Source: a virus (taxonomy: Duplodnaviria; Caudoviricetes). From it: a stretch of 64,000 nt of DNA. Position numbers and translations under genes: made by a program. The stretch spans positions 1 to 64,000 of IMG/VR virus record IMGVR_UViG_2974778117_000001. The stretch is one strand, 5' to 3'. Each line of letters opens with the position of its first letter. Position 1 is the first letter of the stretch. The notes below the pieces were generated by a model. That model saw only the letters and a list, made by a program, of their open reading frames with translations. It was not told the origin of the DNA and did not search any database. Below, piece after piece: positions 1,390-46,095 of this stretch.

Positions 1390-1437
1390 TTGACAGATCC
1401 TAAAGAAGGGTTTAACATATCCCCTGTAGTGTAAATA
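1390..1437 (+). promoter_or_regulatory. sigma70-like early promoter plus TAAATA late promoter at the head of the tRNA array
   Basis: TTGACA(1390-95)-17 bp-TAACAT(1413-18); TAAATA 1432-37. Confidence 0.7.
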
Positions 1438-1989: not shown

Positions 1990-1995
1990 TAAATA
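1990..1995 (+). promoter_or_regulatory. TAAATA late-promoter motif 5 nt upstream of the leader ATG
   Basis: Same hexamer precedes late virion genes at 23688, 34861, 41327, 49160. Confidence 0.55.
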
Positions 1996-2000
1996 CCTAC

Positions 2001-2084
2001 ATGAACAACATGTATAGCCAAAATCAGTTTTGCAAGTGGTCCGTAGAAGATGCGGGACACAGGTCTGTCTTTGAGAGTTGTTGA
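2001..2084 (+). CDS. Putative attenuator leader peptide MNNMYSQNQFCKWSVEDAGHRSVFESC
   Basis: ATG 2001 to TGA 2082-84; overlaps the antiterminator 5' strand; codons match downstream tRNAs. Confidence 0.7.
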   Translation: MNNMYSQNQFCKWSVEDAGHRSVFESC

Positions 2085-2116
2085 GGCTTAGTCTCACATC
2101 TTAGCGAAGACAGACC
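2062..2116 (+). promoter_or_regulatory. Antiterminator hairpin
   Basis: GGTCTGTCTTTG(2062-73) pairs with CGAAGACAGACC(2105-16), 12 bp, sequestering the terminator 5' arm; internal TGAGGC/GTCTCA hairpin. Confidence 0.7.
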
Positions 2117-2137
2117 CGCCCATAGAGGCGGGTTTTT
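2112..2137 (+). terminator. Intrinsic terminator of the tRNA-array attenuator
   Basis: AGACCCGCC-CATAGA-GGCGGGTTT followed by T-run 2133-37, 5 nt before tRNA-Trp. Confidence 0.8.
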
Positions 2138-2142
2138 CATAC

Positions 2143-2218
2143 ACGTCGGTAGCTCAATTGGCAGAGCGGTGGCCTCCAAAGCCACTGGTTGAGGGTTCAA
2201 GTCCTTCTCGGCGTGCCA
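2143..2218 (+). tRNA. tRNA-Trp(CCA)
   Basis: GTGGC-CTCCAAA-GCCAC arm, GCCA end. Confidence 0.95.
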
Positions 2219-2226
2219 AGATTCAA

Positions 2227-2301
2227 GGCTGGTTGGTCAGAGAGGTTATGCGGATGGTTGCAACCCATCATATGGCGGTTCGAGTCCGTCACCAGCCTCC
2301 A
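2227..2301 (+). tRNA. tRNA-Cys(GCA)
   Basis: GATGG-TTGCAAC-CCATC arm, U73, CCA. Confidence 0.95.
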
Positions 2302-2332
2302 AAAGAATTTCAAAATAGTTGCATCCAAGGGG

Positions 2333-2361
2333 TTGACAACAAGCGGTAAGCGGTATACAAT
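2333..2361 (+). promoter_or_regulatory. sigma70-like promoter
   Basis: TTGACA-17 bp-TACAAT. Confidence 0.8.
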
Positions 2362-2388
2362 ATAGGGACAAAGACGAAGGAGTTGGTT

Positions 2389-2610
2389 ATGAGCAACAAG
2401 CAACGCATTGACGAGATCCTGGAACAAGCCCTCAGCTTCGCAGATGCTGAAGAGGTGCCGGATCTGGATCTCATGGATGTGTGGGTCGAGGTGCTGACCG
2501 AAGCTGGCGCGAATCGCGCTGCAGGTTTCATCAAGTCCTGGCTGGACATCGAGTGGGATTTGAGTCTGGATTCTCTGGACGAGTTCATTGATATCCTCCG
2601 GAGTGAGTAA
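2389..2610 (+). CDS. Small acidic hypothetical protein
   Basis: AAGGAG RBS; ORF track. Confidence 0.75.
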   Translation: MSNKQRIDEILEQALSFADAEEVPDLDLMDVWVEVLTEAGANRAAGFIKSWLDIEWDLSLDSLDEFIDILRSE

Positions 2611-2709
2611 CACGTGGTGGTGTGGGGTTCCTGGACCTGAAAACCAGGTGGTGGAGGGTGACCTAAACCGTCACCCCTGAATGACGCGGGCAGGCGCGTA
2701 ATCCTGCCA
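2611..2709 (+). ncRNA. Candidate three-hairpin small RNA ending in CCA
   Basis: CCTGG/CCAGG, GGGTGAC/GTCACCC and GGCAGG/CCTGCC stems in a gap with no convincing ORF. Confidence 0.45.
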
Positions 2710-2715
2710 AGATTC

Positions 2716-2792
2716 AGGTTGCTAGCTCAACTGGTTAGAGCAATCGCCTCTTAAGCGATAGGTTCAGGGTTCAAGTCCCTGGCGACCTACCA
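2716..2792 (+). tRNA. tRNA-Lys(CTT)
   Basis: ATCGC-CTCTTAA-GCGAT arm, ACCA. Confidence 0.95.
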
Positions 2793-2814
2793 ATTCAAGT
2801 GAAGGAGTTGTTGG

Positions 2815-3081
2815 ATGCCGTTGTACAATTACCGTTGCGAAAGTTGCAATCACAAAGAGAAGATCATGTGTAGCGACTGGAGGGAACACGAGAACTCAGC
2901 GTGTCCCGGATGTGGTAAGCCCGAGTTCAGGTATCGACCTTGGGAGAGGGAGGAAGGAGACAATTCGTGGGGTCTGGTGTCACCGGAACGGCTCGGCAGA
3001 AACAAAGCGCCTCGAGACTTCCGAGATTACCTGACCGCAGTGGGTAAGGTGAACCCTGGCCACAAGATGCGTCTTCACTAA
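2815..3081 (+). CDS. FmdB-like zinc-ribbon protein
   Basis: MPLYNYRCESC...CPGCG motif typical of the FmdB family. Confidence 0.8.
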   Translation: MPLYNYRCESCNHKEKIMCSDWREHENSACPGCGKPEFRYRPWEREEGDNSWGLVSPERLGRNKAPRDFRDYLTAVGKVNPGHKMRLH

Positions 3082-3091
3082 AGTTTGCAAC

Positions 3092-3151
3092 CCGTCAGTC
3101 AGCGTGAGACTGGTCCCATTACAGGGACGTCGGCATCGAACCCCGACACGG
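3092..3151 (+). ncRNA. Perfect four-way-junction mini-cloverleaf RNA
   Basis: CCGT/ACGG closes three abutting 5-bp hairpins with no linker nucleotides. Confidence 0.6.
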
Positions 3152-3161
3152 TGAAGTACAT

Positions 3162-3238
3162 TCTGGATTAGCTCAGTTGGTTAGAGCACGCGCCTGTTAA
3201 GCGCGGGGTCACTGGTTCAAGTCCAGTATCCAGAGCCA
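3162..3238 (+). tRNA. tRNA-Asn(GTT)
   Basis: CGCGC-CTGTTAA-GCGCG arm, GCCA. Confidence 0.95.
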
Positions 3239-3246
3239 AGTTGTAC

Positions 3247-3322
3247 GGGCTGTTAGCTCAGATGGGAGAGCGCCTGCCTTGCACGCAGGAGGTCGTCGGT
3301 TCGATCCCGACACGGTCCACCA
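3247..3322 (+). tRNA. tRNA-Ala(TGC)
   Basis: G3-U70, CCTGC-CTTGCAC-GCAGG, ACCA. Confidence 0.95.
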
Positions 3323-3333
3323 AATTAGGTCAA

Positions 3334-3410
3334 GCTAGCCCCTTTCAACAGGGTCGCCAGTAAATGTCGTCGTGTAACTCGACCGTCACCAGACACGAAA
3401 GAGGGCTGGT
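3334..3410 (+). ncRNA. Candidate pseudoknotted small RNA
   Basis: 13-bp closing stem, GGTCG/CGACC stem and crossing CGTGT/ACACG pairing. Confidence 0.5.
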
Positions 3411-3418
3411 CAAATTCC

Positions 3419-3494
3419 GGGTTGTTAGCTCAGTTGGTAGAGCGCCTCTCTTACACGGAGGATGTCCAGGGTTCGAGACCTTGACAACCCACCA
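3419..3494 (+). tRNA. tRNA-Val(TAC)
   Basis: CCTCT-CTTACAC-GGAGG, ACCA. Confidence 0.95.
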
Positions 3495-3502
3495 AGTTGT
3501 AT

Positions 3503-3577
3503 TGCGCGATAGTGAAATTGGCATCACGTGGGTCTCATAAGCCCAAATTTCGGGTTCGAGCCCCGGTTGCGCAACCA
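3503..3577 (+). tRNA. tRNA-Met(CAT); initiator versus elongator unresolved
   Basis: TGGGT-CTCATAA-GCCCA, ACCA. Confidence 0.9.
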
Positions 3578-3584
3578 GATCAAT

Positions 3585-3659
3585 GCACCGTTCCTCTAAA
3601 GGTTAGGAGATCGGGTCTTCACCCCGACAATAGGAGTTCGAGTCTCCTACGGTGTACCA
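3585..3659 (+). tRNA. tRNA-Glu(TTC), U32-C33 loop
   Basis: TCGGG-TCTTCAC-CCCGA, ACCA. Confidence 0.88.
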
Positions 3660-3670
3660 AACATAGCAAT

Positions 3671-3754
3671 GCCCGAGTGGTGGAACTGGCAGACACACTG
3701 CACTCAAAATGCAGCGCCTCAGGCGTGACGGTTCAAATCCGTCCTTGGGTACCA
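3671..3754 (+). tRNA. tRNA-Leu(CAA)
   Basis: CTGCA-CTCAAAA-TGCAG, long variable arm, ACCA. Confidence 0.95.
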
Positions 3755-3761
3755 ACAATTA

Positions 3762-3845
3762 GGGTTGTGGCGTGCAGGGCACAAACTGGTCTTGAAAACC
3801 AGGCCATCCGAAAGGTTGAGGGTTCGATTCCTTCACGACCCGCCA
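3762..3845 (+). tRNA. tRNA-Ser(TGA), minimal D-loop
   Basis: CTGGT-CTTGAAA-ACCAG, variable arm with GAAA loop, GCCA. Confidence 0.88.
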
Positions 3846-3862
3846 AACATCATGGAGGTTTT

Positions 3863-4126
3863 GTGGACATCAGTCGTTTGGAGCATGCAGTACAGCAGCC
3901 TATGTGGCGCTTCTTCACTCCGAGGACGAGAACCCGCAAAGACTACCACGAATGGGTGTCAACGATTCATCTCATGCTTGCCCGCGACAATGAGCGCAAC
4001 GGTGACATGAAGCGAGCCGCTTGGCATCGAGATCGAGAACAGAACACGTGGCGCCCTTACCTCTCGTATGAGGCGAGCAAGACAGTCGATGAATTGCTGT
4101 ATGGCTGTCGTTGCAGGTGTCACTAG
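3863..4126 (+). CDS. Hypothetical protein in the tRNA array
   Basis: GGAGG RBS, GTG start. Confidence 0.65.
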   Translation: MDISRLEHAVQQPMWRFFTPRTRTRKDYHEWVSTIHLMLARDNERNGDMKRAAWHRDREQNTWRPYLSYEASKTVDELLYGCRCRCH

Positions 4127-4132
4127 AAACAC

Positions 4133-4219
4133 GTAGTGCCGGTGAAGTTGGAGAGTCACACCAGGCTGTAAACCTGGCGCCTTATGGCTGAGTAGGTTCG
4201 ATTCCTACGCGCTGCACCA
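4133..4219 (+). tRNA. tRNA-Tyr(GTA)
   Basis: CCAGG-CTGTAAA-CCTGG, variable arm, ACCA. Confidence 0.93.
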
Positions 4220-4223
4220 ATTC

Positions 4224-4298
4224 GCGTCGATAGCTGAGATGGATTAGCGAGGGGCTGAAAATCCCTAGAGGTTGGTTCGATACCAATTCGATGCACCA
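4224..4298 (+). tRNA. tRNA-Phe(GAA)
   Basis: AGGGG-CTGAAAA-TCCCT, ACCA. Confidence 0.95.
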
Positions 4299-4308
4299 AG
4301 TTAGAAGT

Positions 4309-4385
4309 CGGGTTGTAGTTCAGTTGGTTAGAATGCTTGCCTGTCACGCAAGAGGTCACGGGTTCGATCCCCGTCAGCCCGACCA
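4309..4385 (+). tRNA. tRNA-Asp(GTC) with C1-G72/A73 acceptor
   Basis: CTTGC-CTGTCAC-GCAAG, CGGGTTG/CAGCCCG, ACCA. Confidence 0.92.
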
Positions 4386-4393
4386 AATTTTCC

Positions 4394-4421
4394 TTGACAT
4401 TGTGACCAATGCGGTTACAAT
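4394..4421 (+). promoter_or_regulatory. sigma70-like promoter with palindromic spacer
   Basis: TTGACA-16 bp-TACAAT; ATTGTGACC/GGTTACAAT inverted repeat. Confidence 0.7.
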
Positions 4422-4429
4422 ACAAATGT

Positions 4430-4505
4430 AGCGGGTTAGCTCAGATGGAAGAGCAGTGGGCTTTGATCCCATTGGTCGGGGGTTCGACTCCCTCACCCGC
4501 CGCCA
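4430..4505 (+). tRNA. tRNA-Gln(TTG)
   Basis: GTGGG-CTTTGAT-CCCAT, GCCA. Confidence 0.93.
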
Positions 4506-4516
4506 TACATTAGCCT

Positions 4517-4606
4517 GGGTATTTGCGTGAGTCTGGTTTAAACGAGCTCCGTGCTAAGGAGTCAGGTCGAAAGGCCTCGTAGGTTCAAATCCTACAATAC
4601 CCGCCA
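4517..4606 (+). tRNA. tRNA-Ser(GCT)
   Basis: GCTCC-GTGCTAA-GGAGT, long variable arm, GCCA. Confidence 0.93.
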
Positions 4607-4619
4607 ACTTGAGGAGTAG

Positions 4620-5153
4620 ATGATGTTCAGCATTCCCCGCGGTTATCGTCAGTGCACTGGTGCCTGGTGGCTCGTCGGCACCTATTCCAACATCACCAAC
4701 GGCGCGCTGATCAAGCGCCAGATCATCGTGGATAACGGCGGTGATGATTGGTACCGCAGCACGAATGTCGTCACCCTGGAAGTCGATCATGAAGCCAGCC
4801 ACGCAGCTGGTGAACCGATCCTCCGGGCTTCAACGGAGTCCGGTTCGCTTTACCACTTGCCGCTGAGCAAGATGAAGCAGTCGGATCAGTTGGAGCTCAT
4901 CCAGAAGCATTCGGCACCGCAGGCAAAGATCTTCGATCCGTATGCCCAGGAATGTCAGGTCAAGCGCCTGATGGGCCTGGACGATGACTTCGATCTGAAT
5001 GATCTGGTCCCGGAACCGAAGCCGCTGACCCGTGATGATCTGCTTCGACTGGCACGCGAAGTGTCCGCCGAACTGGAGAAGATCAACAAGATGTACCGCG
5101 ACATGTTCCTCAAGGCGGGCATCGACCTGGAAACCATGAAGCGTATCGCGTAA
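4620..5153 (+). CDS. Hypothetical protein
   Basis: GAGGAG RBS; ORF track. Confidence 0.75.
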   Translation: MMFSIPRGYRQCTGAWWLVGTYSNITNGALIKRQIIVDNGGDDWYRSTNVVTLEVDHEASHAAGEPILRASTESGSLYHLPLSKMKQSDQLELIQKHSAPQAKIFDPYAQECQVKRLMGLDDDFDLNDLVPEPKPLTRDDLLRLAREVSAELEKINKMYRDMFLKAGIDLETMKRIA

Positions 5154-5158
5154 CATAA

Positions 5159-5232
5159 GCGAGAGTAGTTTAACGGTAGAATGTCTGCCTTCCAAGCAGA
5201 TGGTTCGGGTTCGATTCCCGGGTCTCGCTCCA
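5159..5232 (+). tRNA. tRNA-Gly(TCC)
   Basis: TCTGC-CTTCCAA-GCAGA, U73 CCA. Confidence 0.93.
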
Positions 5233-5840: not shown

Positions 5841-5954
5841 TATGGGCATCATCAACTACATCCTGTCCAAGTTCGAGCGTCTGTGCGTGTTCGCGGGTTC
5901 GGAAGAATACCGCCGAAAGATGAAGCGATTGGGCTGGTAACCAAGGAGAAACGA

Positions 5955-7130
5955 ATGAGCGGCAACCTTTTCAGCGGCACTGACCGCATCCCGAATGACG
6001 ATATGATGGAGCTGCGACGCACCATCAACGATGCCTTCGGCGGTCGAGCGGTCATCCCTCCGAAGCTCGGTGACAAGGTGGACCACGGTGACGTGGACAT
6101 CTACTGGGACGGCGCAGACATCACGATCGCATCGGACCTGATCAACTTCTTCAAGGCTGAAGAATACGCGACCGATGGCAAGATCATCAAGGATGGTCTG
6201 AAGCGTTACATGAAGACCACCACGGTTCCGGACGAGTACGGCTGGGATCAGGAGATCATGTCGTTCCAGCCCCCGTCCAACCTGAGCATGAAGGTCAAGT
6301 GGGTGAACGGCTTGACCCACCAGATCGACCTGGTTCGACTGGACCCGGGCAAGTTCTTCTTCGGCACAGCCTACTACAGCTACAACGATGCCTGCATGCT
6401 GGTTGGTATGCTTGCACATCGCCTGGGCGTGAAGTTCGGTCATGACGGTTTGTGGTATGTCCTCCGTGATGGCGATCATGAGCTGGGACAGTACTGCTTG
6501 ACGGATGGTCCGATCAAGGCTCTGACCTATCTCGGCTTCGATGCTGAGAAGTTCAAGGAAGGCTTCGCCACCCGCGAAGAGATGTTCGACTGGGTCATCA
6601 ACAGCAAGTACTTCCATCCGAACGCGTTCAATCCGGACAACCGCAATCATCGCCAGCGTGCCCGTGATGCGAAGCGTGCGATCTATGGTGAGTTCACCGC
6701 TCGTGTGAACAAGCCGCCGACCGTCATGCAGAAGATCATCAACAAGCTGGTCCAGTTCAAGCTGGCAAAGAACATGCTGGTCAAGTTTGGTCTGCACCGT
6801 GAGCTGATCGAGACCACGAAGGAAGGCAACTACCAGCGTATGCTGCAGTCCTTCCCGGGCGTGGAAGAGTGGATCAAGACCAAGAAGGAACAGAACGAGA
6901 TCCGGAAGGCATTCAAGGAGGCATTCGGTGCTGACGCATACCGCAAACAGTTCCCGGACCTGTCGGAGAATGGCGATCTGCTCCAGAAGGTGATGCAGGC
7001 GAACAGCGAGAACTTCAAGGAGTTCAACATCTACGAGAAGGCGACACTGCTGGTTGAGCTGCGTTCTGGCTTGGCTAATGAAGACGCCTACCAGATTCGC
7101 GAGAAAATCTACCGTCGAGTAGTCGGATGA
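5955..7130 (+). CDS. Putative Pol-beta-superfamily nucleotidyltransferase
   Basis: HGDVDI and QIDLV acidic triad; AAGGAG RBS. Confidence 0.65.
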   Translation: MSGNLFSGTDRIPNDDMMELRRTINDAFGGRAVIPPKLGDKVDHGDVDIYWDGADITIASDLINFFKAEEYATDGKIIKDGLKRYMKTTTVPDEYGWDQEIMSFQPPSNLSMKVKWVNGLTHQIDLVRLDPGKFFFGTAYYSYNDACMLVGMLAHRLGVKFGHDGLWYVLRDGDHELGQYCLTDGPIKALTYLGFDAEKFKEGFATREEMFDWVINSKYFHPNAFNPDNRNHRQRARDAKRAIYGEFTARVNKPPTVMQKIINKLVQFKLAKNMLVKFGLHRELIETTKEGNYQRMLQSFPGVEEWIKTKKEQNEIRKAFKEAFGADAYRKQFPDLSENGDLLQKVMQANSENFKEFNIYEKATLLVELRSGLANEDAYQIREKIYRRVVG

Positions 7131-7534
7131 ACATCACTCAGAAGAACGTCCTGATCATTGACATCGATCATGGGGATAGCTCACACGCTATCCCCATTGA
7201 TGCCTACTGGGAAACCACTCCACAGGTCTTGGAAGATATGCTGGACACCAGCATCAAGATCTACTGGAACTGGCTGCGTGATTACTACTATCCGAAGGTA
7301 GAAGAGCTGATCATGAACCGCGAGCTGGACGGCGGTGCAGCCTGGGCTGAAATTCGGGACTTGCACGAAGAACAGCTTGCGGTTAAAATCAATGGCGTGA
7401 TGTACAAAGGCTTGCTGAAGGAGTTGACACAGGACATTCCCGGATTCGGCTATCGGAACGATCCGAGGCAGTTCCAGAAGACCTGCTACAACGTCCTGAC
7501 ACTGCAAGAGTGGATTGATTGCTCCCTGCCATAA
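7127..7534 (+). CDS. Hypothetical protein
   Basis: ATGA overlap; ORF track. Confidence 0.7.
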   Translation: MNITQKNVLIIDIDHGDSSHAIPIDAYWETTPQVLEDMLDTSIKIYWNWLRDYYYPKVEELIMNRELDGGAAWAEIRDLHEEQLAVKINGVMYKGLLKELTQDIPGFGYRNDPRQFQKTCYNVLTLQEWIDCSLP

Positions 7535-7721
7535 GGAGGTTTGAGATGGAACCGTTTGAAGAGTATGCCGTGATCGATGACTACGGCGATGATTGGGAAG
7601 AAGGTCCGATTGCCTTCAGCGGCGACACCTTCGAGCAGTGTGCGGAGTGGGCTGAGAGTGAGAACTACCACTCGGCAAGCATCGTCGGCATCCTGGAGAA
7701 TGGTCGTCGAGTCAAGATCGT

Positions 7722-8264
7722 ATGAGTGAGATCTTCTTCTGTAGCGATCACCACTTCACTCACCGCAACCTGATGAAGTGGTATCCGGACCGCAACAAGT
7801 ACGACACTCCGGAAGAGATGGATGAAGCGATCATCGAACGACACAATGCCGTGGTCGGCAAGCGTGACGTCGTGTATCTGCTGGGTGACTTCGGCTTTGG
7901 TAGCAAGGACAGCATTGCGAAGATCGCATGGCGTCTGAACGGTCAGAAGCACTTCCTCAGCGGAAACCATGACAAGGGCCTTCTGAATCACGACAAGTTC
8001 CGTCGCGCATTCAGCTCGATCCTGCCGCCGCTCCACATGATCAGCATTGAAGGGCAGAAGATCGTCCTGTGCCACTTCCCGATTTGGGAATGGGAAGGCA
8101 TCCATCATGGTGTGTGGCACCTGCATGGGCACCTCCACGGATCGAAGTGTGATGTTCCTGGAAAAATTCTCGATGTAGGTATTGACACCAACGAGCTAAG
8201 GCCTTATCATATGGATACGGTCAAAGCACACATGGATGCCAGACCGATTCGTAACCACCACTGA
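7722..8264 (+). CDS. Calcineurin-like metallophosphoesterase
   Basis: SDHH, LGDF, GNHD and HGHLH motifs. Confidence 0.9.
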   Translation: MSEIFFCSDHHFTHRNLMKWYPDRNKYDTPEEMDEAIIERHNAVVGKRDVVYLLGDFGFGSKDSIAKIAWRLNGQKHFLSGNHDKGLLNHDKFRRAFSSILPPLHMISIEGQKIVLCHFPIWEWEGIHHGVWHLHGHLHGSKCDVPGKILDVGIDTNELRPYHMDTVKAHMDARPIRNHH

Positions 8265-8829
8265 GGAGTTCATCATGCAGCTTACCCTGAACGGAACGCA
8301 GATCGCGCTGATGGCGGCATTGGTCGCTCGCGTGTGTCGTCATGAAGCCCACAAGCTCGAGACGACCACGATGTTCGACCTGACCCGCGATCTGGTCGAT
8401 CTGTCGAATGGCATTTTCGGCGAAGACCTGTTCGCAGCTGAGATCAAGGATCTCGGTCCCTATGGTAAGAGACCCGCACGGTCATCTTCACCTTCCAGGA
8501 CGGCGAGAAGATCTTCATCGAGTGCTGCCCGCAGCCGGAATTCGTTCCGAGCGGTGACATCGGTCCGGACAGTCCGCAGGGTGGCGGTTCGGGTTTCACT
8601 GAGCCGACTCGTCTGGCAGCCTGATGGCCAAGTTCAAGAAGCCCAAGTACACCGTTGAGTGTAGGCGACTTGAAAGCGTGCTCCAGTTCGTCCGCGAATG
8701 GTCGAGCTGGAGCGATTGCCAAACCCTGGAAGAAGCCGAGCAAGACCTCAACCTAGCCCTTGAGATCGGCGAGAAGTGGAACTACACCGGCTGGGAATAT
8801 CGTATCCGCAAACTGTGAGGAGAAAAGAC

Positions 8830-9096
8830 ATGAGCACCAACACCACCAAGACCGACAACACCACCGGCTACGTCGGCAAGCGGATCAGCACCAAGCAGTA
8901 CAAGCAGTGGCTGGCGCGTGCGTCCATCAGCGGCGCCACCAACCCGCCGGAGAAGACCGCTCCGGGTGAGCGTCACGGCATCCGCTTTGCGATTCAGGAC
9001 CTGGTGATCGGCAAGCCGCTGCAGTTCGTTCCGAAGTCGGCGGCGAAGGTCGTGACCGAGGCGGACAAGATCACCGCCGCTGTCAAGGGCAAGTAA
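8830..9096 (+). CDS. Small basic hypothetical protein
   Basis: GAGGAG RBS; hairpin plus T-run downstream. Confidence 0.65.
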   Translation: MSTNTTKTDNTTGYVGKRISTKQYKQWLARASISGATNPPEKTAPGERHGIRFAIQDLVIGKPLQFVPKSAAKVVTEADKITAAVKGK

Positions 9097-9136
9097 TCAT
9101 CCCGGGCGCTTCGGGCGCTTTCTTTGAGGGTACATC

Positions 9137-10017
9137 ATGAAGGCATTCATCACTGTCGGAGTCTCCTGCTCTGGCAAGACTACCTGGGCTGAAGCGCGTA
9201 AGCGTGAGTTCGGTGACACGATCATCTGTCGTGATAACATCCGCTGGGCGATCATGGAACAGCGTGGCCTGGTCCCGTGCTGGGCCAACTGGAAGTGGAA
9301 GGATGAGAAGCTCGTCACGCAGCAGCAGAACTATGAGATCGAGGCTGCGGCTGCTGTCGGACTGAACATCGTAATCGCCGACACGAACCTGAACGCTAGT
9401 CGCCGTGCCGCGCTGCGTGAGAAGCTGGAGTCCCTGGGCTACAACGTCCAGTTCAAGATCTTCGATGACATCACCCTGGATGAAGCATTGCGTCGTGACG
9501 CAGCTCGTCTGAACGGTGTCGGCGCGCACATCATCCACAAGCAGTGGGTGGACTTCAACGAGCAGTTCGGTCTGGATCGCTATGAGCCGGTTCCGGGTGC
9601 TAGCGCGTGCGTCATCGTGGACATTGACGGCACCGTGGCGATCATGCGTGACCGTTCGGCATACGATTGGAGCCGCGTTGGTGAGGATGATCGGAACACC
9701 CTGGCTTGCCTGGCAGTGAAGGCGTATCATCAGGCTGGCATCCGCGTGGTGTTCGTCTCCGGTCGTGACGCAGTCTGTGAACCGCAGACCCGTCGCTGGC
9801 TGAGAGATACGTTCGGCGACATGCCGTTCTTCCTGTTCATGCGTGGTATCGGTGATCAGCGCAAGGACACGATCATCAAGCGTGAGATCTTCGACCTGCA
9901 CATCCGCGACAACTACACGTCCTGGGCGTGCTGGATGATCGCCCCAGTGTCGCTCGTATGTGGCGTGACCTGGGCCTGAACGTTATCCAGTTCGGCAATC
10001 CTTACGTGGAATTCTGA
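9137..10017 (+). CDS. pseT: Polynucleotide 5'-kinase/3'-phosphatase (T4 PseT-like); apparent 1-nt deletion near 9917
   Basis: P-loop GVSCSGKTT, RD motif, DIDGT HAD motif, SGR; DDR motif and C-terminus recovered in the shifted frame. Confidence 0.92.
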
Positions 10018-44638: not shown

Positions 44639-46095
44639 ATGGCATATCTAGAAGGCACATGCACAACAGGTGGAGTCGCCACCCAGGCGTCAAGGTTTAC
44701 GCATTCCGCACCGGGCAATGGGGAGCACCTGCATCAGGTATTAGCGACTTTGAAGGAAAGTGGCGAATTGAAGGTTTGGTCGATGACGTTCCGTATGACG
44801 TCGCTTTCGTGCATCCAGATGGACAGTGGGAAGGTAAGATGTCAAGTCGACGCATGCCTATCTTCGATCCGTTTGCCGATCCATACTGGGAAGACACAAC
44901 TCTACTCGTTCACTTTGATGACGTTGCTGGTCAAACCCCGACGAATGAACGCGGCATCACAGGATTCCGAATTGGAGGAACTGGGGCGTTGATTGCAGAC
45001 ACTGCTCCAACTCCCAAGTTTGGAACAGGAGCCTTGAACATCAATAACGGCGCCACTGCTGCCGGATGCTGGTTTGGCACAGGTGCATCAACCGGTATTG
45101 TCGCCGACACCAATCCTATGTATATGGGTTCCACTGACAACTTCACTGTAGAGGGTTGGTTCTATTGCCGAAGTGGCGTGGCGACCAACACCTACCGAGA
45201 CATCTGCATTCTTGCAGCCAACGACAAAGGCATCGTCATCAACGGCAGCAGCCAGATCGTCTACTACGACGGCGGCATCAAGATCCAAGGCCCAAGCATG
45301 ACTGATCTATATGATAAATGGGTGTGGCTTGTCGTCCAGAGAGAAAACGGCATAACGGGGATGTGGCTAGACGGTCAGAGAATCGGCACTTTTGGTGATA
45401 CGGGAGTCAAAAACGCTTTCCGAATCGGATCCAACACCCAAGCGTCTGAACAATTCTTCGGCGGTCTAGATGAATGGAGACACACGAGGGCAGCCAGATA
45501 TCCGGGATCTCCTGTGACTATTCAAGTTCCGACCGCTCCGTTCACACCAGGAAACCCAATCCGGTCAGATAGTTTCACTGTACCTCGTCTTTGGAATTAC
45601 GAACAGACCTTCGGTTCGGCAACTTGGACAATTACTTCTGGTAGATTGAATGTGGATCAATCTACCAGCTCGACAGTCTTTGTCAGGCGAGATTTCTCTT
45701 CACAGAACCTATTCTGTGAAGCTGAGATCTTCCAAGCTCAAGACTCTGGGTTTGTTTGGAGGTACATTGACACGAGCAATTACTACCTGATGTCTCTGAT
45801 GGATGATCAGGCACCGTTGGAACCTAATACTTTGAAGATTTACAAGCGTGTCAATGATGCTTATACACAGATCGGATCCACAACGCCAATCACCTTGACT
45901 CGCGGAACAGCCAACAAAGTGCGGATGGAGATGACGGGTTCTACTATCACTGTTCTGATCAACGGTACGCCAGTCGGATCATTCACCGATACATCAATCG
46001 CAGTCTCTGGTCGAATGGGCTTCAAGGCTGCTGCAGGTTCGGGCTATAACGGACAGCTGTCTGTTGACAACTTCAAGTGGGACACACTCCTATGA
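44639..46095 (+). CDS. Tail fibre/receptor-binding protein with LamG domains (indel near 44680)
   Basis: DPYWEDTTLLVHFD..FTVEGWF..GGLDEWRHTRAARY. Confidence 0.75.

Follow-up and report, generated by a model that had tools for sequence, protein, structure and literature searches.

A candidate leader-peptide attenuator ahead of the tRNA gene array of a Menderavirus phage

A short open reading frame (ORF), a long hairpin and an intrinsic terminator stand between a predicted late promoter and the main tRNA gene array of a Stenotrophomonas phage. Together they may form a translation-coupled (leader-peptide) attenuator that gates late transcription of the array. The probability of this reading, which rests on sequence analysis, is put at about one half. 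A preliminary description had already proposed an attenuator here. The architecture and the link between codons and tRNAs on which that proposal was based are supported by the present analysis, and three additional observations favour it: the late promoter has its predicted +1 at the leader ATG, the tRNA genes of the phage are split between promoters in a matching way, and the Xanthomonas phages X1 and BUDD have a similar layout. However, the leader ORF lacks a Shine-Dalgarno site, sigma-70-like promoters bypass the gate, and the hairpin and the terminator contest only 5 nt. The predicted late promoter largely meets the first two of these objections.

The proposed mechanism is as follows. RNA polymerase with the gp55-type sigma factor of the phage would start at A2001 late in infection. 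The resulting RNA would begin with AUG, which 70S ribosomes could translate without a Shine-Dalgarno sequence. A ribosome finishing the 27 codons would cover 2062-2095 as the polymerase makes the terminator. The long hairpin would then be blocked, the full 9-bp terminator would form and transcription would stop at 2137. What if the ribosome lags, or stalls at approximately codons 2-17? In this scenario the hairpin at 2062-2116 would form first and hold the bottom pairs of the terminator, so that the polymerase would continue into tRNA-Trp, tRNA-Cys and the remaining 14 tRNAs. There is nearly one codon in the sensing stretch for each downstream tRNA species. Therefore, the switch would report general decoding capacity, or the loss of any of many tRNAs, and not the supply of one amino acid. 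We infer every step of this mechanism, including the start site, the translation and the direction of the switch. The timing of the coupling is uncertain given slow leaderless initiation, and a trigger by anticodon nucleases is pure conjecture.

Table 1. Features of the proposed attenuator, the tRNA array and the associated promoters. Positions are those of the window unless marked as genome positions.
Feature	Position	Strand	Details
Upstream sigma-70-like promoter	1390-1418
Late promoter TAAATA for four upstream tRNAs (Lys-UUU, Arg, Ile, His)	1432-1437	+	exact hexamer
TAAATA, predicted T4-type (gp55) late promoter	1990-1995	+	predicts +1 at A2001
27-codon leader ORF	2001-2084	+	ATG 2001, TGA 2082-2084; predicted leaderless, AUG at +1
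Composite hairpin, candidate antiterminator	2062-2116	+	55 nt, -28.6 kcal/mol; outer stem 12 bp
Intrinsic terminator	2113-2137	+	stem 2113-2134, 8-9 bp GC-rich, 6-nt loop, T-run 2133-2137 (five U)
16 downstream tRNA genes, small ORFs interspersed	2143-5232	+	first two tRNA-Trp 2143-2218, tRNA-Cys 2227-2301
Sigma-70-like promoter	2333-2361	+	11/12 matches; bypasses gate; probably early
Second sigma-70-like promoter	4394-4421		near-consensus; bypasses gate
TAAATA, 16 nt before tRNA-Pro	genome 148990		exact hexamer
TAAATA, 13 nt before tRNA-Thr	genome 149569		exact hexamer

The tRNA genes and the promoters that serve them

The window, the whole stretch of DNA that was analysed, covers positions 1 to 64,000 of an IMG/VR virus record 159.5 kb long and shows 94-98% identity to the Stenotrophomonas phages Moby, Mendera, YB07, Ps15, Marzo, Bhz51, BUCT608, Yut2 and Yut3. 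The source phage is a member of the genus Menderavirus, a Stenotrophomonas myophage that is distantly T4-like. There are 23 tRNA genes in the whole genome. Four are upstream of the leader (Lys-UUU, Arg-UCU, Ile-GAU and His-GUG), 16 are downstream of it and three are at 149 kb (Pro-UGG, Leu-UAG and Thr-UGU). The four upstream and 16 downstream genes of the window are the set that the preliminary description gave. It also remarked that tRNAs for Pro and Thr are absent from the array. This is correct for the window, but the phage does encode both, together with Leu(TAG), at 149 kb.

Several features of the surrounding DNA deserve mention in their own right. The gene for tRNA-Lys(UUU) at 1458-1533 has a 6-nt anticodon loop because its T-run is one T short, whereas the loop has the normal 7 nt in all six relatives checked. 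The difference is due either to an error in sequencing the homopolymer or to a genuine variant of the loop. Between tRNA-His and the leader module is a 150-nt segment (1786-1935) that is invariant in six relatives and cleanly missing in Bhz51. It has a T-arm-like stretch, GGTTCGATTCC, and may be a tRNA remnant, but neither ARAGORN nor Rfam calls a tRNA there. The Mendera annotation has a 31-codon CDS inside the segment that matches 1786-1935. Other changes in the neighbourhood leave the leader module untouched. These are an HNH endonuclease inserted between tRNA-Lys and tRNA-Arg in Mendera (L002 1722-2108), a GIY-YIG endonuclease inserted between tRNA-Trp and tRNA-Cys in Marzo (L004 1228-1692) and approximately 630 additional bases between tRNA-Ile and tRNA-His in Bhz51 (L003 573-1205). 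On the other side, a Pol-beta-type nucleotidyltransferase gene adjoins the array, within 5883-10017 of the window, and X1 and BUDD keep the same neighbourhood. The region 5883-10017 shares a late read-through unit with the array, which ends at a terminator at 10016. Finally, a permuted two-piece tmRNA of the betaproteobacterial type is located outside the window (genome 149229-149603), between tRNA-Leu(UAG) and tRNA-Thr. It scores 95.6 bits against RF01850 (gathering score 84) and 120 bits against RF04321, and the tag peptide that ARAGORN reports ends in the usual Ala-Ala. A ribosome-rescue RNA beside tRNAs fits a theme of stalled-ribosome management.

The T4 late promoter, TATAAATA, occupies positions -13 to -6 (PMC1524935). 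Applied to the TAAATA immediately ahead of the leader, this rule predicts that the late transcript starts at A2001. This is the A of the leader ATG, and so the late RNA would be leaderless. The hexamer is unevenly distributed, with 30 copies on the + strand and five on the - strand, whereas most permutations of the same letters occur 0-5 times. Copies are found 23-48 nt upstream of many long, late-looking ORFs that have Shine-Dalgarno sequences, and a purine is present at the predicted +1, six bases past the last A of TAAATA, in 27 of the 30. The phage encodes a homologue of gp55 (E = 7e-9 to T4 gp55; phrog_234, E = 5e-32). Thus the hallmarks of a T4-type late promoter, which are an A/T-rich -10 element, a phage gp55 sigma factor and a position before late genes, were all found. 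The copy at 1990-1995 is invariant in the genus.

How are the other tRNA genes transcribed late? The four upstream genes share one exact TAAATA hexamer, and tRNA-Pro and tRNA-Thr each have one as well (Table 1). Leader codons 1-19 avoid seven tRNA species, and precisely these seven are behind the other late promoters. No exact TAAATA occurs between the leader (2001) and 23688, and the next + strand terminator is the one at 10016. Late access to the 16 tRNAs would therefore be solely via the terminator that ends at 2137. One-mismatch variants of the hexamer do occur inside the array, and by their sequence they might act as weak promoters. At the second tRNA cluster (149 kb) no analogous leader was found; the late promoters there abut the tRNAs.

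The sigma-70-like promoters at 2333 and 4394 put a limit on what the switch could achieve. They bypass the gate, which means that the whole array could be controlled only late in infection and that only tRNA-Trp and tRNA-Cys would strictly need read-through. A search by eye inside 2040-2140 found no sigma-70 promoter for these two genes. Perhaps, then, the element is a Trp/Cys-specific attenuator that responds to nothing but Cys codon 11 and Trp codon 13 and controls just the two tRNA genes next to it. These are indeed the sole genes between the terminator and the next sigma-70-like promoter, both codons are inside the stall zone, and a Trp-Cys pair comes after the module in both phage lineages that have it. 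However, one Trp and one Cys among 17 codons would turn up by chance about 10% of the time (hand calculation), and codon runs of the kind seen in trpL and in the polycysteine ORFs of mycobacteria are absent. In X1 and BUDD the leader holds one Trp codon and no Cys codon. Such a narrow specificity is very improbable.

The leader ORF and its codons

The 27-codon ORF is present as the preliminary description had it, and it begins at the predicted +1, as the short ORF of an attenuator should lie near the start of the transcript. A usable Shine-Dalgarno sequence was sought at its ATG and not found. The predicted pairing there is -3.4 kcal/mol, close to the median for random ATGs (-2.9 kcal/mol), whereas the real small ORFs of the array have AAGGAG-type sites of -7 to -9 kcal/mol. 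This makes translation plausible only on the leaderless late transcript.

Leaderless translation of the ORF is plausible by analogy. A PAAR-repeat gene outside the window (genome 66041-66300; phrog_281, E = 9e-21) also starts at TAAATA-N5-ATG without a Shine-Dalgarno sequence, and is probably expressed from a leaderless late mRNA for a structural protein. The X1 tail-tube gene likewise has TAAATA-N5-ATG and no Shine-Dalgarno sequence. In Xanthomonas, a genus in the family of the host, 14% of mRNAs are leaderless and most of these begin with AUG (PMC3300014). A different use of a leaderless start may exist elsewhere in X1 (L023 372-420; record 45171-45220). There a leaderless mini-ORF of seven codons stands behind a late promoter, and its stop codon overlaps the start of the next annotated gene in ATGA. 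This looks like termination-reinitiation loading of a gene without a Shine-Dalgarno sequence.

According to the preliminary description, codons 1-19 of the leader are all readable by tRNAs encoded downstream and cover 15 of those 16 species. Both points depend on assigning TCC to Ser-UGA; under strict wobble the run ends at codon 13. The companion claim, that these 19 codons include none for the tRNA species encoded elsewhere, holds for all seven of them. Matches to the exact isoacceptor, which had been singled out, show no excess: a hand count gives 12 of 19, where about 10 would be expected.

Is the coverage nevertheless exceptional? The permutation-type check of codon diversity that had been proposed gives two answers. 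For coverage of the downstream tRNAs, the leader is a genome-wide outlier. Its ATG ranks first among the 5,426 ATGs of the genome, and the best one outside the ORF covers 12 species. The nested in-frame ATG at 2010 (codon 4) also covers 15 species, in a 16-codon run. Even among all 318,916 positions the leader start ranks first. The probability of such coverage is about 2e-7 per ATG in a model of independent, identically distributed codons, with local Markov models giving a similar order, and about 1e-3 genome-wide over all ATGs, for a statistic that was framed after the fact. Plain amino-acid diversity is a milder matter: with 14 distinct amino acids in 19 residues the leader is in the top 5% (up to the top 5-7%), and p = 0.015 when corrected for the choice of prefix length. 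The regulatory codons expected of an attenuator are thus found in a variant form, as breadth and not as runs.

The modest diversity of the peptide (top 5-7%) and the lack of a Shine-Dalgarno sequence are what a chance ORF might look like. If that is what it is, the hairpin would be a processing or stability element, such as an RNase III-type site or a protection of the 3' end after an RNase P cut at tRNA-Trp. The terminator would then be a constitutive partial stop that lowers the levels of two rarely needed tRNAs. Trp and Cys are the rarest residues, and both the irregular ~23-bp helix of the hairpin and the just 5 nt that it contests with the terminator would suit this explanation. What does not fit is a late promoter that predicts a +1 at the ATG, the same layout in X1 and BUDD, and the ~1e-3 coverage statistic across all ATGs of the genome. 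The other three late promoters are located 2-15 nt before their tRNAs, which makes a 142-nt structured leader special. A chance ORF beside a processing element is thus unlikely.

Competing structures and their counterparts in X1 and BUDD

The 12-bp pairing of 2062-2073 with 2105-2116 in the preliminary description was reproduced. It includes one G-U pair and is the outer stem of a larger composite hairpin, an irregular helix of about 23 bp. The 5' half of this hairpin consists of leader codons 21-27, the stop codon and the sequence past it. As a whole, the 207-nt region folds better than its shuffles (z = -3.9). The terminator stands between the leader and the genes, as in known attenuators, and it does end 5 nt before tRNA-Trp (2143), as had been described. 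It has a predicted stability of -13 to -15 kcal/mol, matches the other nine + strand terminators of the genome in style and is annotated as a terminator in 4-5 relatives (Moby, Mendera, Marzo, Ps15 and Bhz51).

The two structures had been called mutually exclusive. They do compete, but this wording is too strong. Only 2112-2116, which pairs with 2062-2066 at the base of the hairpin, is contested, and four G-C pairs of the terminator are never sequestered. In the contested zone the pair probabilities are 0.2-0.8, and the terminator and antiterminator states, with 5 nt in common, are 4.7 kcal/mol apart. Because so few bases are contested and four G-C pairs stay free, folding suggests that the dynamic range of the switch may be small.

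Constrained folds, in which a ribosome-sized footprint was blocked and the RNA refolded, were computed for this phage, X1 and BUDD. A ribosome blocked at the stop codon leaves the complete terminator in all three. With a ribosome blocked at codon 10, the antiterminator forms in this phage and in BUDD, but in X1 the terminator fold is still the minimum-energy one, by 2.2 kcal/mol, and the stalled state is ambiguous. Apart from this ambiguity, the ORF is placed such that a ribosome at its end blocks the antiterminator and an early stall does not. The two states are within 2-5 kcal/mol of each other in all three phages. By the same kind of modelling, read-through transcripts that come from upstream promoters and are not translated should prefer the antiterminator. 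Among Rfam leader and small-RNA families no match reached its gathering score (the best was RcsR1, with 21.6 bits against 60; Leu_leader scored 12 bits, on the wrong strand), and a PHROG match for the element was not found either.

Does conservation help? The element is identical in more than 10 Menderavirus genomes except for one substitution, in the terminator loop. This was considered as support and rejected, since the whole block 1709-2389 is equally invariant in the genus. For the same reason the genus offers no covariation or dN/dS test, and the alignment across related phages that had been recommended found no other variation within the genus and so no covariation of codons or hairpins. 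A search of phage databases for near and distant variant relatives returned Menderavirus only, with identical elements. IMG/VR, searched with a degenerate leader pattern, the neighbouring protein and a tRNA-Trp pattern, gave only another copy of Moby; metagenome contigs, searched by protein and tRNA-Trp pattern, gave no relatives. A broader tRNA-Trp pattern in IMG/VR found four unrelated phages in which the module is absent. Variovorax phage V45v66, Erythrobacter phage XM05, Pseudomonas phage pf16 and Stenotrophomonas phage BUCTxx99 have another organization and no module.

The Xanthomonas phages X1 and BUDD are more informative. Their nucleotidyltransferases beside the array have approximately 30% amino-acid identity to that of this phage. 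They encode gp55 homologues, have the TAAATA motif ahead of structural genes, and their arrays start with tRNA-Trp and tRNA-Cys. About 500 nt upstream of the array, both have TAAATA-N5-ATG, an unannotated 39-codon ORF and a five-U terminator (X1: L014 7549-7737). Until the 3' arm of the terminator is synthesized, the predicted fold is a composite hairpin in which ORF codons 34-36 pair with the terminator 5' arm. The two states are 2.2 kcal/mol apart and have 5-6 nt in common. The distance from the stop codon to the terminator end is 53 nt in this phage and about 58 nt in X1. Past the promoter and ATGAA, there is no alignable similarity between the Menderavirus and X1 leaders.

The codons of these leaders also follow the tRNA genes to a degree. 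X1 and BUDD encode all amino-acid isotypes downstream of the leader, and their leaders include the Thr, Ile, Leu, His, Pro, Arg and AAA codons that the Menderavirus sensing stretch lacks. The 39 codons specify 19 different amino acids in X1 (all 19 within the first 30 codons) and 18 in BUDD. The calibrated diversity p is 0.005 for X1 and 0.07 for BUDD, and combining these by hand with the 0.015 of this phage gives about 1e-3. The match is not perfect: no X1 tRNA reads the X1 leader codons CGA, TTG and AGT. Between X1 and BUDD the frame and the length of the ORF are kept, and 11 of the 12 changed codons alter the residue. Judged from these sequences, a regulatory ORF fits the substitution pattern better than a conserved protein does. 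In X1, 320 nt with another promoter-like repeat separate the terminator from tRNA-Trp. The 50-nt promoter-like element occurs before tRNA-Trp and again after tRNA-Val (L014 7944-7996 and 9844-9894), and is repeated in BUDD as well. It probably serves as an early or middle promoter within the array.

Could the module simply be an independent small late gene, with its own promoter, a 137-nt RNA and a terminator? It would then encode a regulatory small RNA or a 27-residue micro-protein, tRNA-Trp and tRNA-Cys would depend on constitutive read-through of a leaky terminator, and the codon match would be coincidental. A promoter-to-terminator spacing of about 137 nt is the standard anatomy of a small-RNA gene, and the RNA, with a less structured 5' part of about 60 nt, a very stable hairpin and a U-tail, looks the part. 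The tRNA clusters of T4-like phages are known to include stable RNAs without an assigned function. Between X1 and BUDD the central 21 codons of the ORF are conserved, as they might be if an RNA structure or a peptide were under constraint. On the other hand, the peptide varies freely between X1 and BUDD, and the element has no Rfam or PHROG match. A small gene also offers no reason for the exact coincidence of an ATG with the predicted +1 in two lineages whose sequences are not similar (a chance of about (1/64) squared, hand calculation), for the competition between hairpin and terminator and the placement of the stop codon that recur in X1 and BUDD, or for the codon/tRNA partition and high diversity in both lineages. 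It is somewhat unlikely for these reasons.

If attenuation is the correct reading, it might extend beyond this genus. Distantly T4-like phages might carry "codon checklist" leaders, that is, leaderless late mini-ORFs that sample nearly all of the tRNAs whose genes follow. If any one host tRNA were depleted or cleaved, whether by anticodon nucleases or through decay after host shut-off, the ribosome would stall, and read-through would reach the replacement tRNAs and, in this phage, continue towards RNA-repair genes up to the terminator at 10016. This wider reading is tentative and rather less likely than not.

Significance and comparison with known systems

Why phages carry tRNA arrays, and how these are timed and dosed, are open questions. 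At present the arrays are explained as a means to compensate for codon usage, to replace host tRNAs as that pool decays, or to escape defences that cut tRNAs. In full-text literature searches, no account of attenuation at the tRNA genes of phages came up. If the proposal is true, the phage would gauge its decoding capacity directly and would provide tRNAs when they are needed. Leader-peptide attenuation would then extend to RNA genes, codon breadth would take the place of codon runs as a sensing principle, and leaderless late mRNAs would have a use. The element, which is small and portable, could act as a natural translational-stress sensor.

The closest parallels are the attenuators of amino-acid operons (trpL, hisL, pheL and leuL, and the multivalent thrL and ilvL). 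They share with the proposed element a promoter-proximal short ORF, a terminator before the genes and an alternative hairpin that overlaps the 5' arm of the terminator, such that a ribosome at the end of the ORF leads to termination and an early stall to read-through. However, they control biosynthetic enzymes and not tRNAs. Leaders of the trpL type have runs of one regulatory codon, in contrast to the near-maximal codon diversity found here (15 of 16 downstream species in 19 codons). They also have a 1:2 pause/anti-antiterminator hairpin, which is apparently absent from the phage element. It follows that untranslated RNA should read through here and not terminate. Further differences are the predicted leaderless mRNA from a phage late promoter and the lack of a match to any Rfam leader family.

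Two other kinds of system are related in part. T-box riboswitches also tie genes for translation supply to the state of tRNA through a choice between terminator and antiterminator. They bind one uncharged tRNA directly, without a ribosome, whereas no T-box features or Rfam match were found here. The second kind comes from mycobacteria, where leaderless polycysteine short ORFs are cysteine-responsive attenuators, according to a bioRxiv report (10.1101/834739). As described there, they resemble the phage element in that the operon transcript opens with a leaderless short ORF, which is a translation-dependent sensor for the genes downstream. Unlike it, they sense one amino acid by means of Cys runs, belong to actinobacteria and have protein-coding targets.

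The last comparison is with the late promoters of T4, which depend on gp55, gp33 and gp45. The promoters of this phage are similar in their TAAATA core, a gp55 homologue, a purine start 6 nt downstream and a position before structural genes, but conservation does not extend to the first two bases of the T4 octamer. A distinctive use of such a promoter, as predicted here, would be to start leaderless mRNAs and to stand at the head of a tRNA operon.
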